64,000 nucleotides of DNA from an uncultured Candidatus Saccharibacteria bacterium (GCA_964397155.1 CAYNHB010000001.1:2093-66092), one strand, 5' to 3'. Counted from the first letter of the stretch, positions 5,422-32,305 are shown. The notes: generated by a model from the sequence alone, not told the origin. Made by a program: numbers and translations.

Positions 5422-6360
5422 ATGGATATAATTGTTGTTTGTCATACAGAATTTGGTTTTACCTCCGGCAAAAAAATAGTTTTTGATAAAAAAGGCCGGC
5501 AGGGCGTTAAAAGCGGGGTTAAAAATTTAATTGAATTAGCAGGCAAATACAAGGCCAAGATAACCTTTACTGTTTGCCCAGAAGTTGTTGATTTTTTTCC
5601 AAAAAATACTTACCATGAGATAGGATTGCATGTCCACCCAGGCTGGGAAAAATTCAGCAAGCCCGGGTTTGAATGGTTTGTAGGAGACCAATATCTTAAA
5701 GAACATTGCCGTCAGTCTTCGTTTTCCAGCGCCTTGTCAGACCACCCTTATTCAGAGCAGTTTGAGATGATAAAAATAGGCAAGGAGTATCTTAAAAATA
5801 GATTAGGCGTTGAATCAAAAGTTTTTGTTGCCGGCCGCGGCTCTGTAAACGATGATACTATAAAGGCGCTGGTGGAAAATGGATTTAGCCACGATTGTTC
5901 AGCCTTAGCAAACAAAAAATTAGCTTATTTGGATTGGTCAAGATTGCCCAGGATTTGCATGCCCTATCACCCCGATGCAGGAGATTATCAAAAAAAAGGG
6001 GACTTGCCTATTTTGATTGTTCCTGCTGCCCAAGTGATATACGGAAGATCTATTGCCCCAGAGAGTGTTCCTAATTTTGGTTTTTCTTGGTTTAAGGCTT
6101 GTTTTTTAGAGTATTACAGGCAAAAGGCGCCTTTATTTCATATTTTCACTCATTCGCCGACAATGACCAGCCCTTATTATTTATCTGTGATGGATAGTTT
6201 TTTTTCTTTTATCTCAAAGTATGATAATATAAATTTTAAATTTGCTTCACAAATTAAAGAATACCCGGATGCGAATTATAAGACATATTTATGGTCTTAT
6301 TTATTTTCTCCCAATAAAGAAATCGCAAAAACAATTCTTAAGAAATTCAAGGGATTATGA
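5422..6360 (+). CDS. Conserved hypothetical enzyme, possibly polysaccharide-deacetylase or glycoside-hydrolase-like
   Basis: 312-aa soluble protein with His-rich candidate metal-binding segments (VVCHTEFG, HEIGLHVHPGW). I recognise no definitive family motif, so the functional call is weak. The existence of the ORF is solid and its stop overlaps the next start. Confidence 0.35.
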   Translation: MDIIVVCHTEFGFTSGKKIVFDKKGRQGVKSGVKNLIELAGKYKAKITFTVCPEVVDFFPKNTYHEIGLHVHPGWEKFSKPGFEWFVGDQYLKEHCRQSSFSSALSDHPYSEQFEMIKIGKEYLKNRLGVESKVFVAGRGSVNDDTIKALVENGFSHDCSALANKKLAYLDWSRLPRICMPYHPDAGDYQKKGDLPILIVPAAQVIYGRSIAPESVPNFGFSWFKACFLEYYRQKAPLFHIFTHSPTMTSPYYLSVMDSFFSFISKYDNINFKFASQIKEYPDANYKTYLWSYLFSPNKEIAKTILKKFKGL

Positions 6361-8018
6361 AAAAAGAATACAAATCAATTTTTCTTGTAAAACTTCCTCT
6401 GTGTTCTCATCCTGACTCCGAAGACAGCGATAGTTTTAGAACCAAAAACCCGTTTAGGCCGGACCCTTCTTTGGCTTTACCGGCATTGTGCGCTTTTATA
6501 GAAAGATACAAAACTTATGATTATAAAATAAAAGCCGTAGATTTAAACCTAGAGGCTTATACTAAACCCGGAACCCCGGTAGATCCGTCTGTTTTCCCCG
6601 GATTGTTAGAGAAAACTATTAAAAACAACGATTATGATGTTTTATCTATATCAATAATGTTTGTTTTTAATGTAAAGTGGGTTGATGATATTGTAAAATT
6701 ATCAAGAAAATTTCATCCTGAGGCAAAAATAATTATCGGTGGCGGATATCCTACGCTTTTTCCTGATAGATGTTTAGCAAAACACGATATTGATAACGCG
6801 ATAATAGGGGAAGGAGAAGCTACTTTTTTGCATATTATTAATAAATATAATAATCATCAAGATCCTGAGTTTGATAAAAAATTTCCTCATGGGTCATATG
6901 CGGCAAAAAATGAAAAAGGAGAAATTAATATTATCGAAGGAAAGAACAGCTTTATTGATCTAGCTAATTTGCCAGTTCCGGCTTGGGATTATATAAATAT
7001 AGAAAAATATTTTGAGAAGAGCGGGGAAAGCACACTGCCAATTGAAGGGAGCAGAGGATGCCCGTATCGTTGTTATTATTGTACCAGCTTCCTTTTTTGC
7101 GGGCCAAGGATTCGCTATAAGCCAGTTGATAATTTAATAAAAGAGATATTAGAGATAAAAAAAAGATACAAGGGTGTAAAAACTTTGCGTTTTGTAGATG
7201 ATAATCTTTCTTTTTCTAAAGACTGGATCAAGGATTTATTGAATAGAATAATAGATATGAAATTGCCGTTAAAATTAGAGATTCAAAACTTTTCAGTCAA
7301 GCATTTAGACGAAGAAATAGTAAGCTTATTAGTTAAAGCTAATATGAAGACATTTACTCTAGCTATTGAGTCAGGTTCTCCTGAAATACAAAAACGCATT
7401 AACAAGAACTTAAACCTTGATATGGTAAGAGGAGTAGTAAAAATGATAAAATCTCATGGTGTTCATCTCCATCTTTGCTGGATGGTAGGCTTTCCAAATG
7501 AAACATTGGATCAGATTAATGAAACTTTTGCTTTCGCCCGCGAATTAAAAGCTAACTCAAACCAATTTGTTACAGTTTTACCGTATCCTGGAACGCCGAT
7601 GTTTAATGAGGCAAAGAGAGACAATTTACTAGTTTTTTCCGAAGACAATTTAGATAAGTTTGATAATAGGAGATGTGACTATTTAAAATCAGATCAATGG
7701 AATTATGATCAGCTTCAGAAAATTATATATGATGCCAATATTGAAATGAATTTTCTTAAAAATCCTTCTCTTGAAACTGCTGAAGGGCGAGACCGCCTCT
7801 TAGAGTTTTTTCAGCCCCTTTTATTGGCGATACCAGAACACGTTGTTTTGCATTTAGTTGTTGGATATATTCACAAGAAGAAAGAGAATTATTCTGAATC
7901 TGAAAAGCATTACAATACAGCCAAAGAGCTTTTAAAAGACAAAAAGCTTTCTGAAACTTTTACTAAATATTTATCTTGGGATAACCTAGTTATACGAGAT
8001 TTTAACGCATGGCTATAA
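6357..8018 (+). CDS. B12-binding (class B) radical SAM enzyme
   Basis: The Cx3Cx2C motif GCPYRCYYC follows an N-terminal Rossmann-like cobalamin-binding region. 553 aa. Confidence 0.8.
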   Translation: MKKEYKSIFLVKLPLCSHPDSEDSDSFRTKNPFRPDPSLALPALCAFIERYKTYDYKIKAVDLNLEAYTKPGTPVDPSVFPGLLEKTIKNNDYDVLSISIMFVFNVKWVDDIVKLSRKFHPEAKIIIGGGYPTLFPDRCLAKHDIDNAIIGEGEATFLHIINKYNNHQDPEFDKKFPHGSYAAKNEKGEINIIEGKNSFIDLANLPVPAWDYINIEKYFEKSGESTLPIEGSRGCPYRCYYCTSFLFCGPRIRYKPVDNLIKEILEIKKRYKGVKTLRFVDDNLSFSKDWIKDLLNRIIDMKLPLKLEIQNFSVKHLDEEIVSLLVKANMKTFTLAIESGSPEIQKRINKNLNLDMVRGVVKMIKSHGVHLHLCWMVGFPNETLDQINETFAFARELKANSNQFVTVLPYPGTPMFNEAKRDNLLVFSEDNLDKFDNRRCDYLKSDQWNYDQLQKIIYDANIEMNFLKNPSLETAEGRDRLLEFFQPLLLAIPEHVVLHLVVGYIHKKKENYSESEKHYNTAKELLKDKKLSETFTKYLSWDNLVIRDFNAWL

Positions 8019-9952
8019 ACATATATTTTGCTGATTTAGTATACAAAACCAATAAGACAAACTTTTTTGTACCCTTGAACATAGGATATGTTGCAGCTTT
8101 TCTAAAAGAGAGGTTTAGAGAAGATGTTAACATTAAGCTTTTTAAATATCCGGATGTTCTTGAAAAAGCTCTAGTTGAAAACCCTCCTGATATTTTGGCT
8201 TTGAGCTATTACAACTGGAATGCCAGGTTAAGCCTTCTTTTTCTGGATATGGTTAAACGATTAAACTCGAAGACATTAACAGTTATGGGTGGGCCGAACA
8301 TCAGAACTGATCCAGACAGCCTTAAAAAATTTTTTGCCAGTCACACCAATCTTGATTATTATATAACCAACGACGGCCCGGAGCCTTTTTCCAAACTTAT
8401 TGGTGAAATTTTAGCAGGGCGCCCCAATCCCGATCCTTTGTCTTTGGCTGCTGAACCCTTTGATGCAAAAAGCATGGAAATAAACCACCCCAGCCCTTAT
8501 CTTACAGGATTGTTGGATGAGTTTTTGGCTGACCCTGATATAAACATTCTTTTGGAAACTAACAGGGGGTGTCCTTTTAGGTGCGCTTATTGCGCTTGGG
8601 GAGGGATGCTCCCTAAAATAAGAACAAGGCCCCTTGAGCAGGTTTTAAAAGAAATTGAGTATATAGCTGAAAAATCAGCAAGTCAGCCCACTTGGATATT
8701 CTGCGATAGTAATTTTGGGATTTTACCCAGAGATTTGGAAATTGCAAAAAAGGTGCGGGAAGTAATGGATAAAAAAGGGTACCCTAAAGATGTGATTATT
8801 TGGCAGTCAAAAAACACGCCGGCAAGAAACATAAAAATTGGCGAACTTTTAGGGAAAAATAACAGGGTATTAATTGCCATACAGTCAGCAGACCCCAAGG
8901 TTCTTGATATTATCGGCCGGGGAAACATAAAAATGAGCAGCATAAAAGAAGAAGTAGATTATTACCACAAAAAAAACCTTAAACTGGGAACGGATATTTT
9001 GGTAGGATTGCCCGGCGAGAGCAAAGACAGCCACTGCAATACTTTGGCAGCTGCTTTTGATATGGGATTTGATTATATTGCCCCACTTAATATTATGCTT
9101 TTACAGGGCACAAGGTATGAAAGCGATGAGTATCGCCAAAAATATGGAGTTAAAACCAAATACAGGCCGATTTTCGGCGCTTACGGCACATATGATAATA
9201 AAAAAGTATTTGAAATAGAAGAGTCGGTCAGGGCCACAAAAGATATGCCAGAACAAGAAATGAATAATCTTAAAATTCACCACTGGCTTATTTTCCTTAC
9301 TTGGAATTATGGTGTTTTCAAACCCATTTTGATGCTGGGCAAAAAACAAGGAATTAACCCTGAAACCGTTATAAAAGAGCTCTCTCAAACCCAAAACCCT
9401 GTGTTAAAAGATTTTTTTGACCGTTTTAAAAAACAATCTATGGAAGAATGGTTCAAAACTAAAGAAGAAATGATTTCTTTTTACGAACGGCCTGAAAATT
9501 TTAGCAATTTAGTCAAGGGTTTTGTAAAATTAAACCTTTTTTATGTGGCATGGGCTTTTCAGAACCCTGAAGTTCTCAATGCTTTAAAAAAAGAAATGGA
9601 AGCTATTGTTGTTGAAAAACTTAAAGAAAACAATGTTTTTGATCTGACTATTATAAAAGGAGTGGCTGAGCTTTCAGACCTTTTTGTCTGCAAAAATTTT
9701 TTGGAAGGCGAAAGGCAAATAACTGTAAAATATCCAGGCCAAGTTGTTTCAGTTGCGATTGATGATGCAAAATTCGCCGATAAAGATACTGTTGAATTAG
9801 AAATTTATCGGCCCCAGGAGTTTGTTGAACTTTGCAGGGCGCACCTGTGCCCGGACGGAAAGGAAAATTTATCTTTAGAAAATATCGCCAAGTTTTTAGA
9901 AATAGGAGGCGCCAGTACGCTTAAAAATAAGGTAATTGTAAAAAATCTTTAA
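8009..9952 (+). CDS. B12-binding radical SAM enzyme with ~250-aa C-terminal extension (tandem paralog 1)
   Basis: Cx3Cx2C motif NRGCPFRCAYCAWG. About 75% amino-acid identity to the next ORF. Confidence 0.8.
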   Translation: MAINIYFADLVYKTNKTNFFVPLNIGYVAAFLKERFREDVNIKLFKYPDVLEKALVENPPDILALSYYNWNARLSLLFLDMVKRLNSKTLTVMGGPNIRTDPDSLKKFFASHTNLDYYITNDGPEPFSKLIGEILAGRPNPDPLSLAAEPFDAKSMEINHPSPYLTGLLDEFLADPDINILLETNRGCPFRCAYCAWGGMLPKIRTRPLEQVLKEIEYIAEKSASQPTWIFCDSNFGILPRDLEIAKKVREVMDKKGYPKDVIIWQSKNTPARNIKIGELLGKNNRVLIAIQSADPKVLDIIGRGNIKMSSIKEEVDYYHKKNLKLGTDILVGLPGESKDSHCNTLAAAFDMGFDYIAPLNIMLLQGTRYESDEYRQKYGVKTKYRPIFGAYGTYDNKKVFEIEESVRATKDMPEQEMNNLKIHHWLIFLTWNYGVFKPILMLGKKQGINPETVIKELSQTQNPVLKDFFDRFKKQSMEEWFKTKEEMISFYERPENFSNLVKGFVKLNLFYVAWAFQNPEVLNALKKEMEAIVVEKLKENNVFDLTIIKGVAELSDLFVCKNFLEGERQITVKYPGQVVSVAIDDAKFADKDTVELEIYRPQEFVELCRAHLCPDGKENLSLENIAKFLEIGGASTLKNKVIVKNL

Positions 9953-9953
9953 C

Positions 9954-11921
9954 ATGGCTTTAAATATATATCTTGCTGACCTCGTATATAATACTATTAA
10001 AACAAATTATGTAGTGCCCTTAAATATAGGGTATGTTGCAGCTTTTCTAAAAGAAAAGTTTGGAGAAGATGTTAACATTAAGCTTTTTAAATACCCGGAT
10101 GTTCTTGAAAAAGCTCTAGTTGAAAACCCTCCTGATATTTTGGCTTTGAGCCATTACAGTTGGAATGAAAGGCTTGATTTCCTTTTTTTGGATATGGCCA
10201 AGCGCCTGAACCCCAAAATCTTAACAGCAATGGGCGGGCCGAACATCAGGACCGGCCCAGAAGACCTTAAAAAGTTTTTTACTAATCACCCAAACCTTGA
10301 TTACTGCGTAGTAAACGAAGGAGAGGAGTCTTTTGCCAGAATTGTAGATGAAATTCTGAAAGGATCTGCCAAACCGCATCCTATGGGTTCTGCTACTATT
10401 ATTAATGGAGAGTTTTTTTATACTCCCGAGCCCTTGGATGAAAGGGGTATGGAAATAAACCAGCCCAGCCCATATCTTACAGGATGGCTGGATGAATTTT
10501 TAGCTGACTCTAATATAATTCCCCTTTTAGAAACCAACAGAGGTTGTCCATTCCGTTGTGTTTATTGCGCTTGGGGAGCTATGCTTTCAAGAATGAGAAT
10601 AAGGCCTCTTGGCCAGGTTTTTAAAGAAATTGAATATATAGCTGAAAAATCAGCAGGTCAGCCTACTTGGATATTCTGCGACAGCAATTTCGGGATTTTT
10701 CCAAGAGATGTGGAAATTGCCAAAAAGGTGAGGGAAGTAATGGATAAAAAGGGATTTCCCATGAATGTAACTGTCTGGCAGTCAAAGAATACGCCAGAAA
10801 GAAACATAGAAATATCTGAACTTTTAGGAAAGAACAACAGAGGGTTAATTGCCATACAATCAGCAGACCCCAAGGTTCTTGAGAATATTGGCCGAGGAGC
10901 TATAAAAATGAGCAGTATAAAGCAACAAATTGATTATTATCATAAAAAGAACCTTGAAACAGTAACAGAAATGATGATAGGATTGCCTGGCGAGAGCGCC
11001 AAGAGCCAATATAATACTCTTATATCTGCTTTTGATATGGGATTTGATTTTATTGAACCATTTAACATCAGGCTTTTACAAGGCACAAGGTATGAAAGCG
11101 ATGAGTACCGCCAAAAATATGAAGTTAAAACTAAATACAGGCCTATTTTTGGAGCTTATGGCGTTTATGATAATAAAAAAGTATTTGAGATAGAAGAATC
11201 GGTCAGAGCCACAAAAGATATGTCAGAGAAAGAGTTAAACGACCTTAAAATTCACCACTGGCTTATTTTTTTCACTTGGAATACCGGTATATCCAAGCCC
11301 ATTTTAATGTTGGGCAAAAAACAAGGGATTAATCCTGAAATTGTTATAGACGAGCTTTCTCGAACTCAAAACCCTACGCTAAAAAATCTTTTTGACCGCA
11401 TAAAAGAAGAATCTATGAAAGAATGGTTTGAAACCAAAGAAGAAATGATTTCTTTTTATGAAAAGCCCGAGAATTTTGACAAGCTGGTTAATAATTTTAT
11501 GAAATTGAACTTTTTTTACATCGCGCTAGTGTATCAGAATCCAGAGATTCTTAAAGCTTTGCAAAAAGAGATGGAAATTATTGTAGCTGAAAAGCTTAAG
11601 CTGAAAAATATTTTTAGCCAAGTTGCTATGAATAGCGTAGTTGAGCTTTCAAACCTTTTAATCTGCAAAAATCTTTTAGAAGATGAGAAGCGGATAACCA
11701 TGAAATATCCAGGCGAGATTGCTTCAATTGTAACTAATGACTTAAAACTTGCCGGCAAAGACGTTGTTGAATTAGAGATTTACCGCCCTAAGGAATTTGT
11801 TTCTTTTTGCCAATTTCATTTAAACCCTGGTGGCAAGGAAAATTTATCTTTGAGAAACATTACCAAATTTTTAGAAGTAGGAGGCCTAAACATGCTTAAA
11901 AACAGGATAAGAGTGTTATGA
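9954..11921 (+). CDS. B12-binding radical SAM enzyme with C-terminal extension (tandem paralog 2)
   Basis: Cx3Cx2C motif NRGCPFRCVYCAWG. Begins 2 nt after the stop of paralog 1. Confidence 0.8.
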   Translation: MALNIYLADLVYNTIKTNYVVPLNIGYVAAFLKEKFGEDVNIKLFKYPDVLEKALVENPPDILALSHYSWNERLDFLFLDMAKRLNPKILTAMGGPNIRTGPEDLKKFFTNHPNLDYCVVNEGEESFARIVDEILKGSAKPHPMGSATIINGEFFYTPEPLDERGMEINQPSPYLTGWLDEFLADSNIIPLLETNRGCPFRCVYCAWGAMLSRMRIRPLGQVFKEIEYIAEKSAGQPTWIFCDSNFGIFPRDVEIAKKVREVMDKKGFPMNVTVWQSKNTPERNIEISELLGKNNRGLIAIQSADPKVLENIGRGAIKMSSIKQQIDYYHKKNLETVTEMMIGLPGESAKSQYNTLISAFDMGFDFIEPFNIRLLQGTRYESDEYRQKYEVKTKYRPIFGAYGVYDNKKVFEIEESVRATKDMSEKELNDLKIHHWLIFFTWNTGISKPILMLGKKQGINPEIVIDELSRTQNPTLKNLFDRIKEESMKEWFETKEEMISFYEKPENFDKLVNNFMKLNFFYIALVYQNPEILKALQKEMEIIVAEKLKLKNIFSQVAMNSVVELSNLLICKNLLEDEKRITMKYPGEIASIVTNDLKLAGKDVVELEIYRPKEFVSFCQFHLNPGGKENLSLRNITKFLEVGGLNMLKNRIRVL

Positions 11922-11933: not shown

Positions 11934-11970
11934 TTGACAGCTTTTTAAAAAAAAGATAAAGTGCATAAAT
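11934..11970 (+). promoter_or_regulatory. Candidate promoter for the riboswitch-led operon
   Basis: Perfect TTGACA at 11934-11939 and an extended -10-like TGcATAAAT at 11962-11970. The spacing to the TTGACA is not ideal, so one of the two elements may act alone. Confidence 0.3.
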
Positions 11971-11971
11971 A

Positions 11972-12136
11972 AATGGGAAACACCGGTGATTCCGCTTTGG
12001 CGGAAAATTCCGGGGCTGTGCCGCAACTGTAAAGCCAGAACACCATTATCATTAAAATCCCTTCGAGCAAAGGGCAATATGAACCGCGTTTTTGCGAATC
12101 TATTGTCTCCCACTTGAAGGTGGGATTTGTGTTTTT
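11972..12136 (+). promoter_or_regulatory. Cobalamin (B12) riboswitch with terminator / SD-sequestering expression platform
   Basis: GGGAAAcaccGGTGatTCC...GCTGTGCCGCAACTGTAAAGCC matches the conserved cobalamin-riboswitch core (GGGAA, GGTGnnTCC, GCnGnnCCGCAnCTGTAA). At the 3' end the hairpin tcccac-ttgaag-gtggga (12108-12125) encloses the AGGTGG Shine-Dalgarno and is followed by tttgtgttttt. Confidence 0.7.
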
Positions 12137-13925
12137 AAATAAGAAAATTATTTTGTCTGTCCTGCTTTTGGCAGGAATAATAGGCACCATAAAGGTAATA
12201 GGCGCTGAAAATCAGAAAGCAGTAGATTATATATCAGCAAAGCCACAAAACGCCTGGATAACCATGGCTTTGGCTTCAGCCGGACAAGGCAATATACCTT
12301 CAGAGCATCTCAAAAATATTACCGGCAACAACACTAATGATTACAGCTCTGCTATTTTAGCCATTACTGCCATGAATGAAGACCCAAGAACTTTTGGAGG
12401 AAGCGATTATGTGGCAAAGTTGGAAAGCTTTTGGGATGGCTCGCAGTTAGGCGACTCAAGCTTATTAAATGATGATATCTTCGGGCTTCTGGCTCTAATT
12501 TCAGCTGGAGAACCTTCTTTAAATCCTATTGTTGAGGGAGCAAAAAATTATATTATTTCTGAACAGAACCCAGATGGGGGCTGGGGGTGGTCTCCGTCGG
12601 CTGAATCTGACTCTAATATGACATCAGCCTCAATTATGGCTCTAATTTCAGCTGGCGTTTCTGCTTTTGACCCTGTAATTGAAAAAGCTTCTGATTTTTT
12701 GAAAACAATGCAAAATGATGACGGCGGTTTTAAATATGATTCTTCAGAATGGAGCTTAGTTTCAGATTCTGCTTCTGACTCTTGGGCGATTTCAGCTATT
12801 TATGCAATGGGGCAGAATCCATCTGAGTGGGTTAAAGAAGCTTCAAATCCTTTGAATCATTTGGAATCTTTGCAAGATGAAGCCGGATTTTTTCATCATC
12901 AGTTAGGAGATCAAGAAACTTCTTTTACCCCCACAGAAACAGCTTATGCAATAATTGCTTTAGAAGGGAAATTTTTCCCCTTGAACATTGTTCAGCCAAC
13001 AGAGGTTTTTTCATTTCGCATTGAAGGAAGCAGCGAAGTTATCTGCCAAGGGAGTGTGGCTGGCCCTACTGCCATGGATGTTGTGAAAAATGCAGCAGTT
13101 ATTTGCGATTTTGATTATGATATTGAAGAAACTCAATTCGGGCCATATCTTACTGCTATAGGGAGCGATGCGGCTTCAGGCAGCGCAGGATGGCTTTATT
13201 TGGTGGATTTTGTGTCTCCTCCTGTTGGGGCTGCAGATTATAACTTAAGTCAGGGAGATGAAGTGCTGTGGTATTTTGGGGAGTTTGGCTTAAAGCCGAT
13301 TAAGCTCGAAATGAATAATGACGGCTCAACAGCATTATTGCACGTCAGTTTTTTTGACAATTCATCTTGGCAGGATTTATCGGGAGCTGCAATTTATGTC
13401 GGGGGTTCTGATTTTATTACAGATTCTTCAGGAGAGGCTTCTGTTAGTATTGCTTCTTTAGTAGATGGCTTGTATCAAATATTTGCAGAAAAGCAAGAGT
13501 ATATAAGAAGCAATAAAATTATCCTTACGGTAGGCGAGGCGCCAAGCGGCCATCAGGTTGGATTAAGCGTTAATATTGCCCGAACCCAGCCTCTGCCAAA
13601 AGACGACCAAAACAGCATAGCTTTTTCAGTTAACCCGTCTGATGTAAACTTTGGCGAGATGAAAGCCGGCAGTTCAAAAAGCAAAGTTTTGAGCTTGTCA
13701 AATGATGGTTCTCAAAATATCAATGTTAATGCCCAAGTGGCCGGAGCTGATGTTTTTAGATCGAACATTTCAATCAATGGAAATATTTGGAATGATTTTT
13801 CTGCCTTTGTTTTGAAAAACGATTCTTTAGACATACAGCTTGGGCTTTCTGTTCCGGATGATTACTCCGGGGCATTTGGTCAGCAGGAAGGAGGGCTGAC
13901 ATTCTGGGCCACAACACAACAATGA
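12114..13925 (+). CDS. Secreted transcobalamin-like B12-binding protein: signal peptide, alpha/alpha-toroid repeats, DUF4430 beta-domain, two Ig-like domains
   Basis: Signal peptide (LNKKIILSVLLLAGIIGTIKVIGA). Repeated DGGWGW / QNDDGGF motifs of the prenyltransferase/squalene-oxidase alpha/alpha-toroid repeat. The mid-protein segment GWLYLVDFVSPPVGAADYNLSQGDEVLWYFGEF fits the DUF4430 signature. The start codon is ambiguous (TTG 12114 or GTG 12129) because it lies inside the riboswitch expression platform. Confidence 0.6.
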   Translation: MKVGFVFLNKKIILSVLLLAGIIGTIKVIGAENQKAVDYISAKPQNAWITMALASAGQGNIPSEHLKNITGNNTNDYSSAILAITAMNEDPRTFGGSDYVAKLESFWDGSQLGDSSLLNDDIFGLLALISAGEPSLNPIVEGAKNYIISEQNPDGGWGWSPSAESDSNMTSASIMALISAGVSAFDPVIEKASDFLKTMQNDDGGFKYDSSEWSLVSDSASDSWAISAIYAMGQNPSEWVKEASNPLNHLESLQDEAGFFHHQLGDQETSFTPTETAYAIIALEGKFFPLNIVQPTEVFSFRIEGSSEVICQGSVAGPTAMDVVKNAAVICDFDYDIEETQFGPYLTAIGSDAASGSAGWLYLVDFVSPPVGAADYNLSQGDEVLWYFGEFGLKPIKLEMNNDGSTALLHVSFFDNSSWQDLSGAAIYVGGSDFITDSSGEASVSIASLVDGLYQIFAEKQEYIRSNKIILTVGEAPSGHQVGLSVNIARTQPLPKDDQNSIAFSVNPSDVNFGEMKAGSSKSKVLSLSNDGSQNINVNAQVAGADVFRSNISINGNIWNDFSAFVLKNDSLDIQLGLSVPDDYSGAFGQQEGGLTFWATTQQ

Positions 13926-14886: not shown

Positions 14887-14910
14887 TATTAAATAATAAA
14901 AAATAAATTT

Positions 14911-24759: not shown

Positions 24760-24767
24760 AAAATTTT

Positions 24768-25136: not shown

Positions 25137-26148
25137 TAACACCCTTTGGGGCGGTATTGTGGGAGAGGACGGCTTTGAGGGAATTGAGTTATCTCTTGAT
25201 AAAGGGGCAGGTTTTATTGCTTTTCAGCAGGCTTTGTTGGATTTATATAACAAAGGAATAATTTTAGCTATTAATAGCCGAAATAATCATGAAGATGCCA
25301 TAAAAGTTATTAAAACTCACCCAAATATGATTTTGAGAGAAAACAATTTTGCCGCTGCGAGGATTAATTGGAATGATAAGGCAGACAATTTGAAAGAATT
25401 GGCAAAAGAAATAAATATCGGGCTTGATTCAATGGTATTTTTGGATGATGACCCGACAAATAGGGCGCTGGTCAAAGCAATTTTGCCAGAGGTTGAAACT
25501 CCAGAAATGCCCTCTGATCCTTCAGATTACGTAAAGTTTTTAATTCAGCTTCCATATTTTGATTTAGCTGCTCTGACAAATGAAGACAAAATGAGGGGGA
25601 ATTTTTATGTCACCGAAAGATTGCGCCGCGAGTCTGAAAAAATTTTTAATAACAGAGAGGATTTTTTAAAAAGCTTAAAAATGGAGATGCAGATATTCGA
25701 GGATGATCCGTCTCAGCTGGCGCGCTTAGCCCAGCTTACCAACAAAACCAATCAGTTCAATTTTAACAAGCGCGAGCTGTTAGAAAAAGATATTGCAGAT
25801 TTTATAAATAGCAAAGACTATAGGGTATTTTACGGCAGGTTAATAGATTGTTTTGGGGATTACGGAATAATTGGTTTTGCTGTTGTAAAAAAGGGTGAAG
25901 AATCCTGGCAAATTGAGCAATTTTTAATGAGTTGCAGGGCTATTGGGCGGGGGGCTGAGGAGGCATTTTTAGCAGCCATAGCAAAAACCGCAAAAAGCAG
26001 CCAAGCCAAAAGCTTATCAATAACATTTGTCCAAACCCTCAAAAACGAACCGGCAAAAGATTTTTTAGAAAAATACTTTAAAGATAATCCGGTGCTAATT
26101 GATAATATTGTTAATTCGCCGTCTTGGATAAAAAATGGAAAAATTTAA
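25102..26148 (+). CDS. FkbH-like HAD-superfamily (subfamily IIIC) enzyme
   Basis: CIVLDLDNTLWGGIVGEDG HAD motif I, a second motif VFLDDDP, and a ~350-aa length matching FkbH-like domains that load a glyceryl unit onto ACP. Confidence 0.6.
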   Translation: MSVKKCIVLDLDNTLWGGIVGEDGFEGIELSLDKGAGFIAFQQALLDLYNKGIILAINSRNNHEDAIKVIKTHPNMILRENNFAAARINWNDKADNLKELAKEINIGLDSMVFLDDDPTNRALVKAILPEVETPEMPSDPSDYVKFLIQLPYFDLAALTNEDKMRGNFYVTERLRRESEKIFNNREDFLKSLKMEMQIFEDDPSQLARLAQLTNKTNQFNFNKRELLEKDIADFINSKDYRVFYGRLIDCFGDYGIIGFAVVKKGEESWQIEQFLMSCRAIGRGAEEAFLAAIAKTAKSSQAKSLSITFVQTLKNEPAKDFLEKYFKDNPVLIDNIVNSPSWIKNGKI

Positions 26149-26365
26149 TAAAATAATTTTTGATATCTTTAAATTAACGCCGGCTAAGATTAAAGATTCC
26201 CTGACGTTAGAAGAAATTCCCGATTGGGATTCTATGAATTATTTACTGCTTATTTCTGAATTAGAAAAGCAATTTAAAGTATCTTTTAACATGGACCAGG
26301 TACTAAAGGCTAAATCTTTGGGCGATGTTAAAAATATGCTTCGTTCAAAAGGCATAGAATTATGA
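26135..26365 (+). CDS. Acyl carrier protein
   Basis: 76 aa with the EIPDWDSMNYLLLISELEKQF helix II and a DS(M) phosphopantetheine-attachment serine. Confidence 0.7.
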   Translation: MEKFNKIIFDIFKLTPAKIKDSLTLEEIPDWDSMNYLLLISELEKQFKVSFNMDQVLKAKSLGDVKNMLRSKGIEL

Positions 26366-27162
26366 AAAAAGAAAAAATTATATTTAAATATAAGGACAAG
26401 GGATTCGTTTTTTCGGACATAGTCAAAGCCATTAAAAAATCTGGGATTAAAAAAGGAGGCGTTTTAATGCTTCATGCTGATTTAGCCCGTTTTGGAAAAT
26501 TAGGAGAAATTTCTGATAAAAAAGAGTTTGCCAATGTTTTTATAGAAGCGTTTAGAGAGGCGTTGGGAGAAGAGGGAACATTGGTTGTGCCGACTTTCAC
26601 ATATTCTTTTTGCAATAATGAGGTCTATGACCCAGATAATACACCATCAAGAGTAGGATTATTTACTGAAGAATTACGCAAGAGAAAAGACGCTTTCAGA
26701 AGTATTCATCCTATATTTTCAGTTGCTGCTATCGGGAAAAAAGCTAAAGAACTAACCCAAAATATCAGCAAAAACAGTTTTGGTGAAGGTTCTGTGTATG
26801 ACAAGCTTTTAAAAATAAAAAATAGCAAATATGTGATATTTGGAGTTGATTATTTTAGTTGTACTCAGGTTCATTATATTGAAGAAAAACTGAGAGCGCC
26901 TTATAGATACGTAAAAAAATTTAAAGGGAAAATAAAAGAAAAAGGCAAAATATATAATGACGAATATGAATATTATGTCAGGCCCTTGGATGAAAGTGTA
27001 GTTCCTGATTTTGATAAAATTGAAAACCATCTTTTAAATGCTGGTTTTCTCAAAAAAACAGCCCTCGGTAATGATTTTATAAGCGTTACTAAGATTAGTG
27101 ATATCTGCAAGGAGGGAACAAAAATGTTTAAAAAAGACCCAAATTTTTTCTTAAAAATATGA
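26362..27162 (+). CDS. AAC(3)-family (Antibiotic_NAT fold) N-acyltransferase
   Basis: GGVLMLHADLARFG and TLVVPTFTYSF match aminoglycoside 3-N-acetyltransferase-family motifs. Here it is embedded in a sugar pathway next to an ACP. Confidence 0.65.
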   Translation: MKKEKIIFKYKDKGFVFSDIVKAIKKSGIKKGGVLMLHADLARFGKLGEISDKKEFANVFIEAFREALGEEGTLVVPTFTYSFCNNEVYDPDNTPSRVGLFTEELRKRKDAFRSIHPIFSVAAIGKKAKELTQNISKNSFGEGSVYDKLLKIKNSKYVIFGVDYFSCTQVHYIEEKLRAPYRYVKKFKGKIKEKGKIYNDEYEYYVRPLDESVVPDFDKIENHLLNAGFLKKTALGNDFISVTKISDICKEGTKMFKKDPNFFLKI

Positions 27163-28409
27163 TGCAATTAATTAAAGACCTCTGGTTTAAAAGAAGGGAT
27201 ATTATTTCTGACGGATTTGATGAATCATTGGAATATATTTCAAAAATAATCCCTCTTAAAATTCATGAAATCCCATCGGGAACAAAATGCTGGACTTGGA
27301 CGGTGCCTGAAAAATGGAGCGTGAAAGAGGCATATATAAATGATTTGGACGGCAACAGAATCCTTGATTTAAAAGATCACCCCTTGCATGTTGTTTCTTA
27401 TTCTTTGCCGATTGATAAAGTTGTAAGCAGAGAAGAGCTATTGGAGCACTTGCATACAAGCAAAGAAAGACCTGAAGCCATTCCCTTTGAATTTAAGTAT
27501 TATGAAAAAGATTGGGGTTTTTGTATTCAAGATAATAAATTAAAAGAATTTACAAAAGATAAATACAAAGTTTTTATTGATTCTAAATTTGAAAAAGGAG
27601 ACTTAAAAGTAGGTGAGCACACAATAAAAGGTAAAACTGATAAAACTATTGCTTTGGTTTCTCATCTTTGCCATCCCGCTCAAGTGAATGATGATTTGAC
27701 TGGCGTTGCAGTATCAGTTGATATTGCTAAAGCAATGGGCAAAAAAGACAACTACTATACATATAAATTTTTGTTTGTTCCAGAAACAATCGGTTCTCTT
27801 GCCTATCTAAGCCAAAATGAAGACGTAATTCCTAAAATAGAATACGGCATTTTTCTTGAAATGTTGGGCAATGACAATATTCATGCCTTGCAGTTATCGC
27901 GACAAGGGGATACGCGATTAGACAGAATTGCAAGATATCTAATGAAAAGAAATCTTAAAAATTTTAAAGAAGGACCTTTTAGAACAATTGTGGGAAATGA
28001 CGAAATGGTATTTAACGGACCCGGTGTTGATGTCCCAATGATTTCAATCAGCAGATATCCTTATCCTGAATATCATACATCAGACGATAATCTTGATATT
28101 GTGTCAGAACAAAGATTGGAAGAATCCAAAAATTTAATTTTGGAAATATTAAACATTATTGATAAAGATTTTACGCCGAAAAGGCAATTTAAAGGGCCGA
28201 TATTTTTGTCAGGATATGATTTATGGGTGGATTGGAGGGAAAATTTAGAATTAAACAGAAATTTTGAAAAAATTATGCTTAATCTTGAAGGCGATAAAAC
28301 CGTATTTGATATAGCAGATGAATTAAATATGAAATTTGAAGATGTCTTGGGCTTCGTGAATAAATTAGAAAAAGCCAAATTGGTCTTAAATATGAAAAAT
28401 AATGAATAA
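27159..28409 (+). CDS. DUF4910/aminopeptidase-like domain protein with C-terminal winged helix
   Basis: 416 aa. The C-terminal FDIADELNMKFEDVLGFVNKLEKAKLVL looks like a wHTH. The architecture resembles DUF2172-DUF4910-HTH proteins often found beside AAC(3)-like genes in glycan loci. The assignment is tentative. Confidence 0.35.
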   Translation: MMQLIKDLWFKRRDIISDGFDESLEYISKIIPLKIHEIPSGTKCWTWTVPEKWSVKEAYINDLDGNRILDLKDHPLHVVSYSLPIDKVVSREELLEHLHTSKERPEAIPFEFKYYEKDWGFCIQDNKLKEFTKDKYKVFIDSKFEKGDLKVGEHTIKGKTDKTIALVSHLCHPAQVNDDLTGVAVSVDIAKAMGKKDNYYTYKFLFVPETIGSLAYLSQNEDVIPKIEYGIFLEMLGNDNIHALQLSRQGDTRLDRIARYLMKRNLKNFKEGPFRTIVGNDEMVFNGPGVDVPMISISRYPYPEYHTSDDNLDIVSEQRLEESKNLILEILNIIDKDFTPKRQFKGPIFLSGYDLWVDWRENLELNRNFEKIMLNLEGDKTVFDIADELNMKFEDVLGFVNKLEKAKLVLNMKNNE

Positions 28410-29469
28410 GGAATATAATTTTAAAATTGGCAACAGGGAAATAGGGCCCGGAAATCCGGTTTTTATTATTGCTGAAATGTCTGCTAATCATAGTCAGGAT
28501 TTTGAAAGAGCCAAGAAAATAATTAAAGCTGCTTGCGAATGCGGAGCAGATGCAGTTAAGTTGCAAACCTATACTCCCGATACTTTGACTATTGATTGCA
28601 AGAAAGAAAGCTTTATCGTAAAAAACTCCAACCCTGATTGGAATGGGAAAACTTTATATGAACTCTATAAAACAGCTTATATGCCCTGGGAATGGTATCC
28701 GGAGCTTAAAAAAATAGCCCAAGAATGCGGTGTTATTCTTTTTTCTACTGCTTATGACGAAACATCAGTTGATTTTTTGGAAGAAATGCAGACGCCAGCT
28801 TATAAAATTGCCTCTTTTGAAATTAATGATGTGGAACTTTTAAAAAAAGTGGCCAAAACAGGAAAGCCAATAATTTTATCAAAAGGTATGGCCAGCATAG
28901 AAGAAGTAGAATTGGCAATTTCAACTTTAAGAGAAAATGGTGCTAAAGATATTATTCTTCTTCACTGCATTAGCTCGTATCCTGCTAAATTGGAGGACAT
29001 GAACTTAGCCACTATTTTAGATATAAAAGAAAAATTTAATGCAGTGCCAGGTTTATCTGACCACAGTTTAGGAATTTCTGTGGCAATAACTTCAATAGCT
29101 TTGGGAGCTTGTGTAATTGAAAAGCATTTTACCCTAAAACGAGCTGATGGCGGGCTTGACAGCTCTTTCTCTGTTGAGCCGGACGAATTAAAACAATTAG
29201 TAAAATGTGTAAGAGAGGCAGAAAAAGCTATCGGTAAAATTCAATACGGACCGACTGAAAGCGAAAAACCGAATATTATTGGCAAAAGATCGTTATTTGT
29301 GGTTGAAAATATAAAAACAGGGGAAGTGTTTACCCACAAGAATGTGCGTTCAATTCGCCCAGGATATGGGCTTGCGCCGAAATTTTTGCCTGAAGTTTTT
29401 GGAAAAAAATCGGTAAAAGACATAGAGCGCGGCACTCCCCTTGATCAAAGTTTAATTGAAAAAAAATAA
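28402..29469 (+). CDS. Nonulosonic acid synthase (NeuB/PseI/LegI family)
   Basis: FIIAEMSANHSQDFERAKKIIKAACECGADAVKLQTY N-terminal NeuB motif and a C-terminal SAF domain. Confidence 0.85.
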   Translation: MNKEYNFKIGNREIGPGNPVFIIAEMSANHSQDFERAKKIIKAACECGADAVKLQTYTPDTLTIDCKKESFIVKNSNPDWNGKTLYELYKTAYMPWEWYPELKKIAQECGVILFSTAYDETSVDFLEEMQTPAYKIASFEINDVELLKKVAKTGKPIILSKGMASIEEVELAISTLRENGAKDIILLHCISSYPAKLEDMNLATILDIKEKFNAVPGLSDHSLGISVAITSIALGACVIEKHFTLKRADGGLDSSFSVEPDELKQLVKCVREAEKAIGKIQYGPTESEKPNIIGKRSLFVVENIKTGEVFTHKNVRSIRPGYGLAPKFLPEVFGKKSVKDIERGTPLDQSLIEKK

Positions 29470-30196
29470 TATGAAATCAGCCATTATCCAAGCAAGGATG
29501 GGCTCTGATCGTTTGCCAGGGAAAGTTTTGAAGAAAATTAACGGAAGACCAATGCTGGAATACGTAATTAATAGGGTGAAGCTCTCTAAAAATTTAGATA
29601 AAGTCATTTTGGCTATTCCCAGCGCTTCTCAAGATGATATTTTGTTTAAATTAGCCAAAAAATTAAATACGATTTGTATAAGAGGGAGCGAGAAGAATGT
29701 TTTGAGCCGCTATCTTAAGGCGGCAAAAGGGACCAATACAGATGTGATTATTAGAATTACCGCCGATGCTCCTTTAATTGATCCTAGAATAATAGATGAG
29801 ATGCTAGACAGCTTTGAAAAAGAAAAATGTGATTATCTTATTAATGATGTAAGACACAAAGGCCATCCCCGAGGATTTGATGTAGATGTATTTTTTACAA
29901 AATGTTTAGAGAAAACATCAAAGCTGGCCAATACAGATTATCACAAAGAGCATATTACAACTTTTATGTTAGATCACCCTGAAATATTTAAAGTCAGATA
30001 TTACAAGGCGCCAAAAAATCTTTGCCGGCCGAATTACCGGCTTTGTGTGGATGAAAAACTTGATCTGATTTTGATAAAAAAAATATTTAAACATTTTAGG
30101 AAAAGAGAATATTTCAGCGCCCAAGAAATAATTGAATATATTGATAAAAATCCTAAATTGGCAGATATAAACAAAAATGTTAAGCAAAAAACATAA
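29456..30196 (+). CDS. Acylneuraminate cytidylyltransferase family (CMP-nonulosonate synthetase, PseF/NeuA-like)
   Basis: AIIQARMGSDRLPGKVL N-terminal CTP_transf_3 motif. The start may be MKSAII at 29471. Confidence 0.8.
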   Translation: MKKNNMKSAIIQARMGSDRLPGKVLKKINGRPMLEYVINRVKLSKNLDKVILAIPSASQDDILFKLAKKLNTICIRGSEKNVLSRYLKAAKGTNTDVIIRITADAPLIDPRIIDEMLDSFEKEKCDYLINDVRHKGHPRGFDVDVFFTKCLEKTSKLANTDYHKEHITTFMLDHPEIFKVRYYKAPKNLCRPNYRLCVDEKLDLILIKKIFKHFRKREYFSAQEIIEYIDKNPKLADINKNVKQKT

Positions 30197-30959
30197 AATA
30201 AAATACGGCTTGAAGCTATGGTCTACTGACCGGGAATTATTTCCGGAAGCAGTTCAATCATTTAAAAAAGGAACTATTGATTTTATAGAATTATATATTG
30301 TTCCCAATTCGTTTATGCCGGGAAAACTCGATTTTTTGAACGATCTGAAGAATATTCCCACAATTATTCATGCTCCTCACACCAAACACAATTTTGATGT
30401 TTTTTCACTCAACGATTCAAAGATTAAAATTTTTAAGGAGCAAGTTGCAAAAACCGCTGATTTTTTAAATAGTAAATTCATAATTGTCCATGCTGGAATT
30501 GGGGATTCCCAAGCAATTTTTAAAGAAAATATTGAAAAAATTAAAGATAAAAGAATTTTAATTGAAAATATGACAAAAATCGGCATAAATGATCAACCTT
30601 GCTTTGGACATTCTTATGAACAGTTGAAGTTTATTAAGGAGCGTGGATTTAATTTTTGTTTGGATTTCAGCCATGCGATAAAAAGCTCTATAAGCCAGAA
30701 AATAGGTTACAAAGAATTTGTTGAAAAATTAATCATTGAATTAACCCCGAATTATTTTCATATCTGCAACGGCAGATTTAATAATGACGAAGATGAACAC
30801 ATGGATTTGTTTGACGGTGACTTTGATATTAAATGGATTAAAGAAATATTGCTTAAATTAGCTGGGAAAAAAGATGTATATTTAGTATTTGAGACGCCCA
30901 AGAGCGGGAATAGAATTTCGAATGATATTAAAAATATAAACTACTTTTTAAGCATATGA
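30177..30959 (+). CDS. Xylose-isomerase-like TIM-barrel protein (sugar-phosphate isomerase/epimerase family)
   Basis: Alternating beta/alpha pattern with His/Asp/Glu metal-ligand candidates (IIHAPH, IIVHAGIG, ENMT, DFSH) typical of the AP_endonuc_2 fold. Confidence 0.5.
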   Translation: MLSKKHKIKYGLKLWSTDRELFPEAVQSFKKGTIDFIELYIVPNSFMPGKLDFLNDLKNIPTIIHAPHTKHNFDVFSLNDSKIKIFKEQVAKTADFLNSKFIIVHAGIGDSQAIFKENIEKIKDKRILIENMTKIGINDQPCFGHSYEQLKFIKERGFNFCLDFSHAIKSSISQKIGYKEFVEKLIIELTPNYFHICNGRFNNDEDEHMDLFDGDFDIKWIKEILLKLAGKKDVYLVFETPKSGNRISNDIKNINYFLSI

Positions 30960-32305
30960 ATAACAAAATAATGTTGATAAATCCGCCGATGACTTATTTT
31001 ACATCGGTAGAACCGATAAGATTGGCCCAGCCAATGGGGCTTTGTTATATTGCCGCAGTTTTAGAAAAAGAAGGGTATGATGTCAAAATATTTGACGCTC
31101 ATGCGGAAGGATACAACAACCGTACAAAAAGAGGAGACAGAACGCAGGTTGGTTTGGATGAAAAAGAGATTGCAAAAAAGATAGCAGAACTTAAGCCCGC
31201 TATCGCGGGGGTTTCGTCAATGTTTACAGACCAATACCATAATGCCAAAATGGTTTGCAAGATTATCAAAGAAGCAAATCCTGAAATTGTAACTTGCATG
31301 GGCGGAGTGCATCCAAGTATGGTAGCGGAAGAGGTTTTGAAAGATCTAAATGTTGATTATGTTATAAGGGGCGAGGCAGAGTACAGCTTTAGGGATCTTT
31401 GTGATTTGTTGGTAAAAAAGAAAGATATTGATCCTAAAAAAATTGACGGCTTGAATTTAAACTCTAAAACGAAATGGATTGAAAATCTTGACGAATTGCC
31501 TTTTCCTGCCCGCCACCTTCTTGACCTTCAAAGATATTTTGCTGCTGGAAGAGCCTATCGAGAACCGTCAAAGCGAGAGCCCGCTTTTCCCATAATTACC
31601 TCAAGATGCTGTCCTGCTTCTTGTAGTTTTTGCGCTACTCACATAATGCAAGGCCACTACCGACAGCGTTCAGTTGAAAATGTTATAACTGAGATTGAAT
31701 ATCTTATTAAAAACCATGGCATGCAAGAAATATATTTTTTGGATGATGCTTTGGCTTTCGGCAATTTTAAGGAGATATTAAAAAAGATGATTGAAAACCA
31801 GTATGATTTAGCGTGGCACGGCGCAAATGGGGTTGCTATTTACAGCTTAAATGATGAGTTGATAGAGTTATTTGCTAAATCCGGATGCTATAAAATTATA
31901 TTATCAATAGAGTCAGGCGTTCAAAAAACATTAGAATATATGAAAAAACCGGTAATATTAAACAAGGCAAATAAAATCATTAAGAAGATAAAAGATTGCG
32001 GCATGAAGGCAGAAAGCATGTTTATGATAGGCCTTCCTTGTGAGACAAAGGAGGACATATTAAATACTGTAAAATTTGCAGAGAGCTTAGATTTAGATTA
32101 TGTTAGTTTTCCTCTTGCCACGCCCTTCAAGGGAACAGCTTTTTATAGGGATTGTGTTGAAAAAGGATGCTTGGTGAAAGATTATAAGTATGAAAATCTT
32201 AAATTTGGAATTGGAAATATTCGAACCAAAGAATGGGGGACGGAATTTGTTGAGAAAGTAAGAAGAGAAGCATGGGAAAGAATTAACAAAATTAATAAAA
32301 AATAA
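30956..32305 (+). CDS. B12-binding (class B) radical SAM enzyme
   Basis: N-terminal B12-binding domain (VKIFDAH, GGVH) followed by the Cx3Cx2C motif SRCCPASCSFC. Confidence 0.8.
   Translation: MNNKIMLINPPMTYFTSVEPIRLAQPMGLCYIAAVLEKEGYDVKIFDAHAEGYNNRTKRGDRTQVGLDEKEIAKKIAELKPAIAGVSSMFTDQYHNAKMVCKIIKEANPEIVTCMGGVHPSMVAEEVLKDLNVDYVIRGEAEYSFRDLCDLLVKKKDIDPKKIDGLNLNSKTKWIENLDELPFPARHLLDLQRYFAAGRAYREPSKREPAFPIITSRCCPASCSFCATHIMQGHYRQRSVENVITEIEYLIKNHGMQEIYFLDDALAFGNFKEILKKMIENQYDLAWHGANGVAIYSLNDELIELFAKSGCYKIILSIESGVQKTLEYMKKPVILNKANKIIKKIKDCGMKAESMFMIGLPCETKEDILNTVKFAESLDLDYVSFPLATPFKGTAFYRDCVEKGCLVKDYKYENLKFGIGNIRTKEWGTEFVEKVRREAWERINKINKK

Follow-up and report, generated by a model that had tools for sequence, protein, structure and literature searches.

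Radical S-adenosylmethionine (SAM) enzymes of class B combine a B12 (cobalamin)-binding domain with a radical SAM domain. GenK, GenD1 and Fom3 are class-B C-methyltransferases of antibiotic pathways, which methylate an unactivated carbon of a sugar or nucleotide-activated small molecule (aminoglycoside sugars or cytidylyl-hydroxyethylphosphonate). TokK, ThnK, CysS and KedN5, some of which act iteratively, are C-methyltransferases of carbapenem, cystobactamid or enediyne clusters. HpnJ and BchE are non-methylating class-B enzymes, and AprD4, whose partner reductase is AprD3, is a B12-independent diol dehydratase; HpnJ, which rearranges a hexosamine moiety, and AprD4 both act on amino-sugar moieties. 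Here, we analyse a stretch of 64,000 nucleotides (the window) from an uncultured Candidatus Saccharibacteria bacterium (GCA_964397155.1, CAYNHB010000001.1:2093-66092), in which five class-B radical SAM genes, R1 to R5, are found in a ~60-kb surface-sugar locus, around a pathway of the pseudaminic-acid type. On balance, it is probable that these five genes encode functional class-B radical SAM enzymes that tailor a Patescibacteria surface glycan centred on a pseudaminic-acid-type nonulosonic acid. Whereas GenK, GenD1 and Fom3 serve antibiotic pathways, R1 to R5 lie in a cell-surface glycan locus; the likeness is one of concept.

Every group among the B12-dependent radical SAM enzymes that has been functionally characterised includes C-methyltransferases, and methylating and non-methylating members are inseparable by sequence [see the 2026 review, PMC12931638]. 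The list of characterised enzymes in that review contains no glycan or nonulosonic-acid enzyme, and the words “sugar”, “glycan” and “polysaccharide” occur nowhere in its text. Full-text literature searches, in which coverage was incomplete and an empty result is absence of evidence only, gave nothing relevant linking radical SAM enzymes to nonulosonic, pseudaminic or legionaminic acid. Searches for radical SAM enzymes and cobalamin in Patescibacteria, and for pseudaminic acid in the candidate phyla radiation (CPR), also gave nothing relevant.

The five genes are as follows (lengths in amino acids, aa):

6357–8018, + strand: R1, class-B radical SAM enzyme of a rare subfamily, 553 aa (PF02310, PF04055, CPYRCYYC)
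8009–9952, + strand: R2, TokK/CysS-like class-B radical SAM enzyme, diverged tandem copy, 647 aa (PF02310, PF04055, CPFRCAYC)
9954–11921, + strand: R3, TokK/CysS-like class-B radical SAM enzyme, 655 aa (PF02310, PF04055, CPFRCVYC)
20570–21991, + strand: R4, class-B radical SAM enzyme, 473 aa (PF02310 84.8 bits, PF04055 78.4 bits, CPHNCTFC)
30956–32305, + strand: R5, class-B radical SAM enzyme, 449 aa (PF02310 77.7 bits, PF04055 68.6 bits, CPASCSFC)

A preliminary description of this DNA had assigned a B12-binding domain and a CX3CX2C cluster motif to each of these open reading frames (ORFs), and the coordinates, domains and exact motifs are all confirmed. The B12-binding domain PF02310 exceeds its gathering threshold (GA) of 32.1 bits in all five proteins (44.1 in R1, 34.8 in R2, 37.3 in R3), in R2 and R3 only marginally, and the Radical_SAM domain PF04055 scores 52–78 bits in all five against a GA of 29.5. 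The domain E-values lie between 1e-8 and 1e-24, so the matches are not due to chance. The CX3CX2C motif is at residue 235 in R1, 188 in R2, 198 in R3, 204 in R4 and 219 in R5. In pairwise BLAST comparisons, R2 and R3 are tandem paralogs of 71% identity, whereas every other pair is at most 28% identical; thus, the five enzymes represent four subfamilies. None is placed in a characterised family by NCBIfam: no curated cutoff is reached, the best scores being 143–245 bits against cutoffs of 575–700. For the TsrM group, which the preliminary description had put forward for comparison, the model (TIGR04428) matches R4 only, with 39.8 bits against a cutoff of 500.

The setting of these genes was defined by annotating all ORFs of 100 aa or more with Pfam and NCBIfam. 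Positions ~2.4–63.4 kb of the window are essentially one glycan locus, almost all on one strand, with genes for export and polymerisation (Wzy_C-TPR and two Wzx flippases), glycosyltransferases (GT2, GT4, GT9, Bac_transf), NeuB, CMP-sugar synthetases, DegT aminotransferases, short-chain dehydrogenase/reductase (SDR) dehydratases and a TagF-like glycerophosphotransferase. The surface-polysaccharide setting that had been proposed is therefore borne out. In addition, there are genes of heptose type (PfkB and a CTP_transf/HAD protein), genes of CDP-hexose type (glucose-1-phosphate cytidylyltransferase and 4,6-dehydratase) and extra tailoring genes (several SAM methyltransferases, an ATP-grasp, two WbqC genes and R5). 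The G+C content of the window is ~35%, and its nearest relatives over at least 15 syntenic genes, with 42–89% aa identity, are metagenome-assembled genomes labelled Patescibacteria, Parcubacteria, Paceibacteria or Staskawiczbacteria, GW2011_GWA2_37_10 being one of them. Loci of relatives are referred to below by L numbers. The features of the pathway around R4 and R5 are:

19575–20573, + strand: PseB-like UDP-GlcNAc 4,6-dehydratase (PF02719, 315.7 bits)
21975–24022, + strand: SDR (GalE/RmlB-like, 314 aa), then PseC aminotransferase (389 aa)
24019–28409, + strand: N-acyl tailoring block of TylF-like methyltransferase, 4′-phosphopantetheinyl transferase, FkbH-domain protein, acyl carrier protein (ACP), Antibiotic_NAT-type N-acyltransferase and DUF4910/M28-like protein
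28402–30959, + strand: PseI (pseudaminic acid synthase), CMP-sugar synthetase (PF02348) and xylose-isomerase-like TIM-barrel protein (PF01261)
32306–34314, + strand: WbqC-family protein (PF08889, 249.6 bits) and second DegT-type aminotransferase (PF01041, 298.7 bits)

The centre of the pathway is a nonulosonic acid of the pseudaminic-acid type, with PseC and PseI as its core, both of which score above their equivalog cutoffs (PseC, TIGR03588, 486.6 bits against 423.5; PseI, TIGR03586, 479.2 bits against 340.25). The PseB-like protein stays below its own (TIGR03589, 316.2 bits against 407.75). The locus shares with the canonical pathway (PseB-PseC-PseH-PseG-PseI-PseF) PseC, PseI, a PseB-like protein, a CMP-synthetase and a similar gene order; unlike the canonical pathway, it has R4 and an extra SDR between PseB and PseC, it adds methyltransferases, an ATP-grasp, two copies of WbqC and R5, and PseH is apparently replaced by an FkbH/ACP/NAT system. 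Neither a PseH of GNAT type nor a PseG of GT28 type, nor any clear PseG, was found by Pfam among the ORFs of the window. The place where PseH would be expected is occupied by the phosphopantetheinyl transferase, FkbH, ACP and Antibiotic_NAT acyltransferase genes (24768–27162), which suggests that an ACP-derived N-acyl group of glyceroyl type is placed on pseudaminic acid. FkbH exceeds its cutoff (TIGR01686, 297 bits against 146.65), the ACP (26135–26365, 76 aa) has a DSM motif, and a matching block is present in the relative L011 (L011 13484–17100), in which the NAT is fused to a methyltransferase. Further downstream (34295–36148), a 617-aa fusion joins a UDP-GlcNAc 2-epimerase-like region (Epimerase_2, a weak match) to a CMP-sugar synthetase domain, and this protein may stand in for the missing step of PseG/NeuC type.

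The closest described relatives of R2 and R3 are the C-methyltransferases of the TokK type, with which their B12-binding and radical SAM domains are homologous over ~350 residues. R2 matches TokK (7kdx) with E=2.3e-37; R3 matches TokK with E=1.7e-39 (residues 51–399) and CysS (9n1b) with E=1.5e-32. Both groups have the motif ETNRGCP...C..C-x-W-G, including its tryptophan. In TokK, the position of W215 is between cobalamin and cluster (PMC12931638); W207 of R3 aligns with it and is invariant across 17 members of the family. In contrast, the C-terminal ~250 residues of R2 and R3 are not alignable to TokK, their scores against the KedN5 model NF033712 are 148.6 and 146.6 bits, respectively, under the cutoff of 700, and they stand in nonulosonic-acid and glycan loci instead of carbapenem, cystobactamid or enediyne clusters. 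Judged from these alignments, R2 and R3 are homologs of KedN5, TokK and CysS, not members of those families.

The R2/R3 family is large, with 2,426 proteins at E≤1e-10 in a first search and at least 574 loci in species-representative genomes. Members of at least 44% identity are found in Planctomycetota, Methanosarcinales, Sulfuricella, Desulfovibrionaceae, Firestonebacteria and Magnetococcales, and more distant relatives (30–40%) in Omnitrophota, Nitrospinota, Myxococcota and many Alphaproteobacteria, including the cultured Pelagibius litoralis. The association of the family with nonulosonic-acid genes was measured by tblastn with the proteins of the window, counting markers within 10 kb; the background was a set of 80 generic class-B loci from a metagenome scan for the R1 family, and p values are from Fisher tests:

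NeuB: 20/80 R2/R3-family loci, 2/80 background loci, p=4e-5
CMP-synthetase: 12/80 R2/R3-family loci, 0/80 background loci, p=3e-4
WbqC: 8/80 R2/R3-family loci, 0/80 background loci, p=7e-3
NeuB, orthologs of at least 44% identity in loci of at least 12 kb: 8/13, background 2/35, p=1e-4

The tandem duplication of the TokK-like gene (8009–11921) is seen only in this genome, and R3 tracks the single-copy orthologs of other genomes. These orthologs are 75–80% identical to R3 and 68–72% identical to R2, and in a clustered set of 5.8 billion proteins R2 has, apart from itself, no relative above 72% identity; R2 is therefore regarded as a lineage-specific diverged duplicate, and its divergence may represent neofunctionalisation.

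R4 is embedded in the pathway. The ORFs of the PseB-like protein, R4 and the SDR overlap, the stop of the first overlapping the start of R4 by 4 bases, and the same order of three genes is found within NeuB/DegT/CMP-synthetase loci in L011 and L014 (Patescibacteria), L018 (Parcubacteria) and L012 (Omnitrophota). The R4 orthogroup is tight, with 57–100% identity and a constant length of ~473 aa, and the next relatives are at most 34% identical. The best-scoring curated families for R4 are HpnJ (TIGR03471, 164 bits) and BchE (TIGR02026, 158 bits), far under the respective cutoffs of 577.6 and 481.

For R5, orthologs of 58–89% identity come from genomes with names of Patescibacteria type only, where the source gives a name. 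WbqC follows R5 directly in the window and in L173, and after one methyltransferase in L009; a 43%-identical homolog of R5 on a 3.2-Mb contig (L010) has WbqC and NeuB within 4 kb. WbqC is downstream in all CPR ortholog contexts that were looked at; by gene order, CPR genomes and one further genome link R5 with WbqC and NeuB. Two homologs of R5 are fusion proteins, one of WbqC with B12-binding and radical SAM domains (P0153) and one of a nucleotidyltransferase with the same two domains (P0194), which supports action on nucleotide-activated sugar intermediates. The best NCBIfam scores of R5 are 244.9 bits for Sden_1168 (NF038361, cutoff 575) and 134.9 bits for PhpK (TIGR04479, cutoff 600). We know of no solved structure or function for the WbqC family itself; a PDB sequence search gave nothing meaningful, an AlphaFold2 (AF2) model from a 3-sequence alignment had a predicted local distance difference test (pLDDT) score of 54, and the literature search found incidental mentions only. 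A second WbqC-family gene lies at 62669–63385, and its product is 38% identical to that of the gene at 32306–33007.

R1 is rare: in an exhaustive search, only ~15 of 1.84 billion representatives were relatives that matched over the full length with more than 30% identity, and orthologs (76–78% identity) were found only in CPR genomes, L014, L015 and L040, which turned up by chance among the loci of the genome scan. The metagenome scan for the R1 family had patterns too generic for this purpose and returned class-B enzymes of at most 33% identity, with no R1 orthologs among them. The highest NCBIfam scores of R1 are 142.8 bits for Sden_1168 (cutoff 575) and 115 bits for PhpK (cutoff 600). Its closest solved relative is AprD4 (6fd2, E=5e-24), which it matches over residues 198–417 only, i.e., the radical SAM half, and its score against the AprD4 model NF033070 is 97.5 bits (cutoff 500). 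Two genes precede R1 in its cassette:

4974–5417, + strand: cytidylyl/adenylyltransferase-like protein, 147 aa, first gene of the cassette (PF01467, 49.7 bits)
5422–6360, + strand: 312-aa protein, probably of a divergent polysaccharide-deacetylase/GH57-clan fold (weak Polysacc_deac_1 matches in orthologs)

The 147-aa protein scores 59.8 bits against rfaE_dom_II and 41.7 bits against TagD, both under the NCBIfam cutoffs, and its gene is also found upstream of R1 in L015 and L040. The 312-aa protein has no Pfam match at 1e-3, a PDB sequence search was empty, and an AF2 single-sequence model was unusable (pLDDT 35); four orthologs match Polysacc_deac_1 with 22.5, 22.4, 19.5 and 12.8 bits (GA 23.1), from which the protein probably adopts the fold just named. 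Its gene is always directly upstream of R1, and the order cytidylyltransferase-like gene, 5422-like gene, R1, R3 has been kept in three CPR genomes.

Between R3 and the pseudaminic-acid genes lies an operon with a predicted role in the capture of B12:

11934–11962, + strand: promoter-like site, preceding the aptamer
11960–12053, + strand: predicted cobalamin riboswitch aptamer of AdoCbl-II type (RF01689, 32.1 bits, GA 36.5; E=5e-6 in a local search)
12108–12125, + strand: terminator-like hairpin
12114–13925, + strand: membrane-anchored transcobalamin-like protein, 603 aa (toroid PF13243/PF00432; PF14478, 36.4 bits; Ig-like regions)
13922–14461, + strand: 179-aa protein with signal peptide, Ig-like domain and C-terminal transmembrane helix (weak ASH/Ig-like match; hydrophobic residues 5–27 and 150–175)
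14458–14886, + strand: membrane-anchored DUF4430 protein, 142 aa, putative B12 binder (PF14478, 58.5 bits; N-terminal anchor)
14911–15474, + strand: DUF6580 polytopic membrane protein, 187 aa, putative transporter component (PF20221, 172 bits; at least four hydrophobic segments)
15505–15559: strong terminator-like hairpins closing the operon

In eukaryotic transcobalamin and intrinsic factor, an α/α toroid and a DUF4430 β-domain are joined in one protein, DUF4430 being the C-terminal domain of transcobalamins (PMC4350170). The 603-aa protein has the same combination: an N-terminal hydrophobic anchor, an α/α toroid of squalene-cyclase/prenyltransferase type (SQHop_cyclase_C/Prenyltrans) and DUF4430, its residues 315–384 matching the β domain of human transcobalamin-2 (5no0, E=8.4e-5), so that B12 binding is predicted from sequence. 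The 179-aa Ig-like protein is conserved in L011, L014 and L015, and the DUF6580 protein in these and L018. The predicted AdoCbl-II/cobalamin riboswitch upstream recalls known riboswitch-regulated systems of B12 uptake; unlike those systems, the operon has no BtuCDF, BtuB or recognisable ECF ATPase, and its membrane component is the uncharacterised DUF6580, for which the literature search was empty. At the Rfam gathering threshold no riboswitch is reported in the leader of the operon, the aptamer emerging in E-value mode. The same intergenic site scores 56.2 bits in L015 (above threshold), 31.5 in L011 (equal to the GA of RF00174) and 28.1 in L014; the core with its B12 box is conserved, and 2 of the 12 predicted pairs show compensatory changes. 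The operon that had been described as riboswitch-regulated (now 11934–15559) is real; its predicted riboswitch is backed by syntenic relatives, and a capture function is predicted from the transcobalamin-like domains. In five CPR relatives, including L011, which lacks R1 to R3 and keeps R4, the module has the Wzy/R-cassette side on one flank and the Pse operon on the other, and it is a reasonable inference that it serves these radical SAM enzymes.

A working model for the five enzymes can be given in conditional terms. R4, translationally coupled between the PseB-like protein and the SDR and upstream of PseC, would modify UDP-4-keto-6-deoxy-N-acetylhexosamine (HexNAc) or a precursor of it before transamination, and the adjacent SDR would handle the product. 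R5 and WbqC would act on a later intermediate of the nonulosonate pathway, either nucleotide-linked or free. R2 and R3 may place methyl groups, possibly iteratively, on an sp3 carbon in either the sugar or its N-acyl group, one of the duplicates having diverged, and for R1, acting alongside the cytidylyltransferase-like and deacetylase-like proteins, the substrate would be a nucleotide-activated precursor; the cytidylyltransferase-like gene beside R1 and the nucleotidyltransferase fused to an R5 homolog echo the logic of Fom1 and Fom3. Since every characterised group includes C-methyltransferases, methylation is the prior expectation; by this analogy we infer C-methylation rather than other radical reactions, and most of the five would probably be methylcobalamin-dependent C-methyltransferases. 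As far as the 64-kb window allows a judgement, the organism presumably cannot make B12 and would scavenge it through the riboswitch-gated module, so that decoration of the glycan would need external B12. Taken further, and only tentatively, at least one of the enzymes might install a C–C modification on the skeleton of the pseudaminic precursor, giving a new branched sialic-acid-like sugar or one of more than nine carbons, in a glycan that, in these genome-reduced CPR bacteria, would be gated by B12 taken from neighbours or hosts through transcobalamin-like capture. For such a modification, which could be a C-methyl branch or an extension of the terminal 9-methyl group, the strongest candidates are R4, together with the SDR beside it, and R2 and R3 of the TokK type.

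Several points weigh against B12-dependent tailoring of a pseudaminic-type glycan by these five enzymes. NeuB is within 10 kb in only 25% of all R2/R3-family loci, and many distant members (27–40% identity) occupy other contexts. In the window, R1 to R3 are ~8 kb from the Pse genes, with the B12 operon and the TagF block between them, so that their substrate could be another component of the glycan. The riboswitch of the window is 4.4 bits under the Rfam gathering score. R4 scores best against HpnJ and BchE, which do not methylate, and the best solved relative of R1 is AprD4. The chemistry rests on analogy because no enzyme reaches a curated family cutoff, and the binding of cobalamin is not deducible from sequence: ArsL has a cobalamin domain and binds none. 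AprD4, too, is a protein with a cobalamin domain that binds no cobalamin (PMC12931638). The use of cobalamin by R1 to R5 is indirectly supported by the adjacent riboswitch-controlled B12 module in five CPR genomes and by the equivalent of TokK W215 in R2 and R3.

These same scores are the basis of a serious rival, though a doubtful one: at least one enzyme, with R4 and R1 the likeliest, would be non-methylating and would catalyse diol dehydration or deoxygenation (as AprD4 with AprD3), a ring contraction or a rearrangement (in the way of HpnJ or OxsB), or else epimerisation, with the SDR processing the product. It is serious because such members cannot be recognised from sequence, having no distinguishing features, and because enzymes like AprD4 bind no cobalamin; moreover, HpnJ, the top curated family for R4, is listed as non-methylating (PMC12931638). 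The SDR always follows R4, a pairing that resembles AprD4 and AprD3. Yet all the scores concerned are far under their cutoffs (against AprD4, R4 has 56.5 bits, even less than R1), and the match of R1 to AprD4 covers only the radical SAM half. No hopanoid, bacteriochlorophyll or aminoglycoside genes are present in the window. For R4, the match to the B12-binding domain is strong, and the conserved B12-uptake operon adjoins R4 even in L011, where R1 to R3 are missing, which argues that R4 uses cobalamin.

B12-dependent modification of sugar intermediates has also to be weighed against substrates that are not sugars: an acyl group tethered to the ACP (FkbH/ACP), a glycoprotein acceptor, which would be C-methylated in the manner of QCMT and Mmp10, or a lipid carrier. 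The locus does contain FkbH, ACP and phosphopantetheinyl transferase genes, peptides and lipids are among the substrates of class-B enzymes, and the solved structure nearest to both R4 and R5 is 9ccb, i.e., QCMT, the glutamine C-methyltransferase of MCR (PMC12931638), a protein-modifying enzyme. This explanation is unlikely all the same: the similarity to QCMT is weak (E=1e-11 to 1e-20), FkbH and ACP do not recur beside R2/R3, R4 or R5 in other phyla, the neighbours that are conserved are dehydratase, SDR, aminotransferase, NeuB, CMP-synthetase and WbqC genes, and the nucleotidyltransferase fused to an R5 homolog likewise points to sugar nucleotides.

By a further reading, which is very improbable, R1 and R5 would methylate phosphorus in a phosphonate or phosphinate decoration, as the P-methyltransferases PhpK and Sden_1168 do. 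Their top curated matches (Sden_1168, then PhpK) and the cytidylyltransferase-like genes, present as in the logic of Fom1 and Fom3, might suggest it; these scores do not come to half of the 575-bit cutoff, R5 has WbqC and NeuB as its conserved partners, and this reading was rejected because annotation of the window ORFs of 100 aa or more gave neither PEP mutase (PepM) nor any other phosphonate gene. That the radical SAM genes are unrelated cargo of a variable region is scarcely credible: the locus is a mosaic, in which the MFS–TagF block and the R1–R3 cassette are present or absent among relatives, but cross-phylum gene order, overlapping ORFs, fusion proteins and a significant enrichment of nonulosonic-acid markers speak against it.

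Tailoring of a nonulosonic-acid-type surface glycan is thus the reading carried forward. The examination of gene neighbourhoods ties R2/R3, R4 and R5 to the nonulosonic-acid pathway specifically, and the two findings that would have undone the preliminary description, a lack of B12-binding domains and orthologs outside sugar loci, did not appear. Its claim that the density of class-B genes is unusual stands against characterised systems and does not stand against environmental sequence. Among R2/R3-family loci of at least 15 kb, a single class-B gene is present in 39, two in 10 and three in 1. In a generic metagenome set that is size-biased towards multi-copy loci, 7 of 28 unrelated class-B loci, also of at least 15 kb, have at least three class-B genes within ~22 kb, and one has five; this weakens the claim. 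Thus, for a CPR bacterium with a small genome, a locus with five such genes is notable and without precedent among characterised systems, but environmental data show that it is not unique. Four unrelated metagenome loci (L097, L114, L115 and L116) hold four to five class-B radical SAM genes in ~22 kb, some beside SDR/FkbH-like genes. Related Pse or nonulosonic-acid loci carry other class-B subfamilies, each below 30% identity to R1 to R5.

What is apparently new, as judged from comparison of the sequences, is the pathway context, conserved and seemingly undescribed, of a set of orphan class-B subfamilies, together with an uncharacterised transcobalamin-like module for B12 capture in CPR bacteria. 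Three uncharacterised subfamilies are conserved in surface-glycan and nonulosonic-acid pathways: R4 in Patescibacteria and Omnitrophota, R2/R3 near NeuB in several phyla, and R5. Candidate substrates can be named for these orphan families (UDP-4-keto-6-deoxy-HexNAc and CMP- or UDP-linked Pse intermediates), new sialic-acid-like sugars are predicted, and the arrangement suggests that ultra-small, presumably B12-auxotrophic CPR bacteria tie the decoration of their surface to scavenged B12. The locus, known from annotation and comparative genomics, offers new enzymology a well-supported lead, though as a system it is of a known kind.

The remaining features of the locus are given for completeness:

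16067–19567, + strand: MFS transporter, second cytidylyltransferase-like protein, TagF-like CDP-glycerol glycerophosphotransferase and small methyltransferase, a block missing in the nearest relative L014

As L014 is otherwise syntenic and the R1–R3 cassette is likewise missing from L011, the locus is modular and variable. A GT9 heptosyltransferase, a PfkB kinase and a CTP_transf/HAD protein (49163–53480) constitute a toolkit of lipopolysaccharide-core type, which is kept in L003 (13505–16521) and thus conserved in genomes labelled Patescibacteria; to our knowledge, Patescibacteria are generally thought to be without an outer membrane. The glycan locus is bracketed by small paralogs at 746–1063 (+) and 63402–63725 (+), each with a C-terminal HTH_24 domain, which are 36% identical over 69 aa (E=4e-14) and may be regulators of the locus; a comparable small HTH ORF is found in the Omnitrophota locus L012. 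A DUF3800-V RNA (564–661, − strand; RF02964, 53.3 bits, GA 37.4) lies just downstream of an ORF with a DUF3800 domain (44–550, + strand). The only two sizeable ORFs on the minus strand inside the locus are at 41583–42197 and 51646–52383, one of which has a very weak NUDIX match and the other none.

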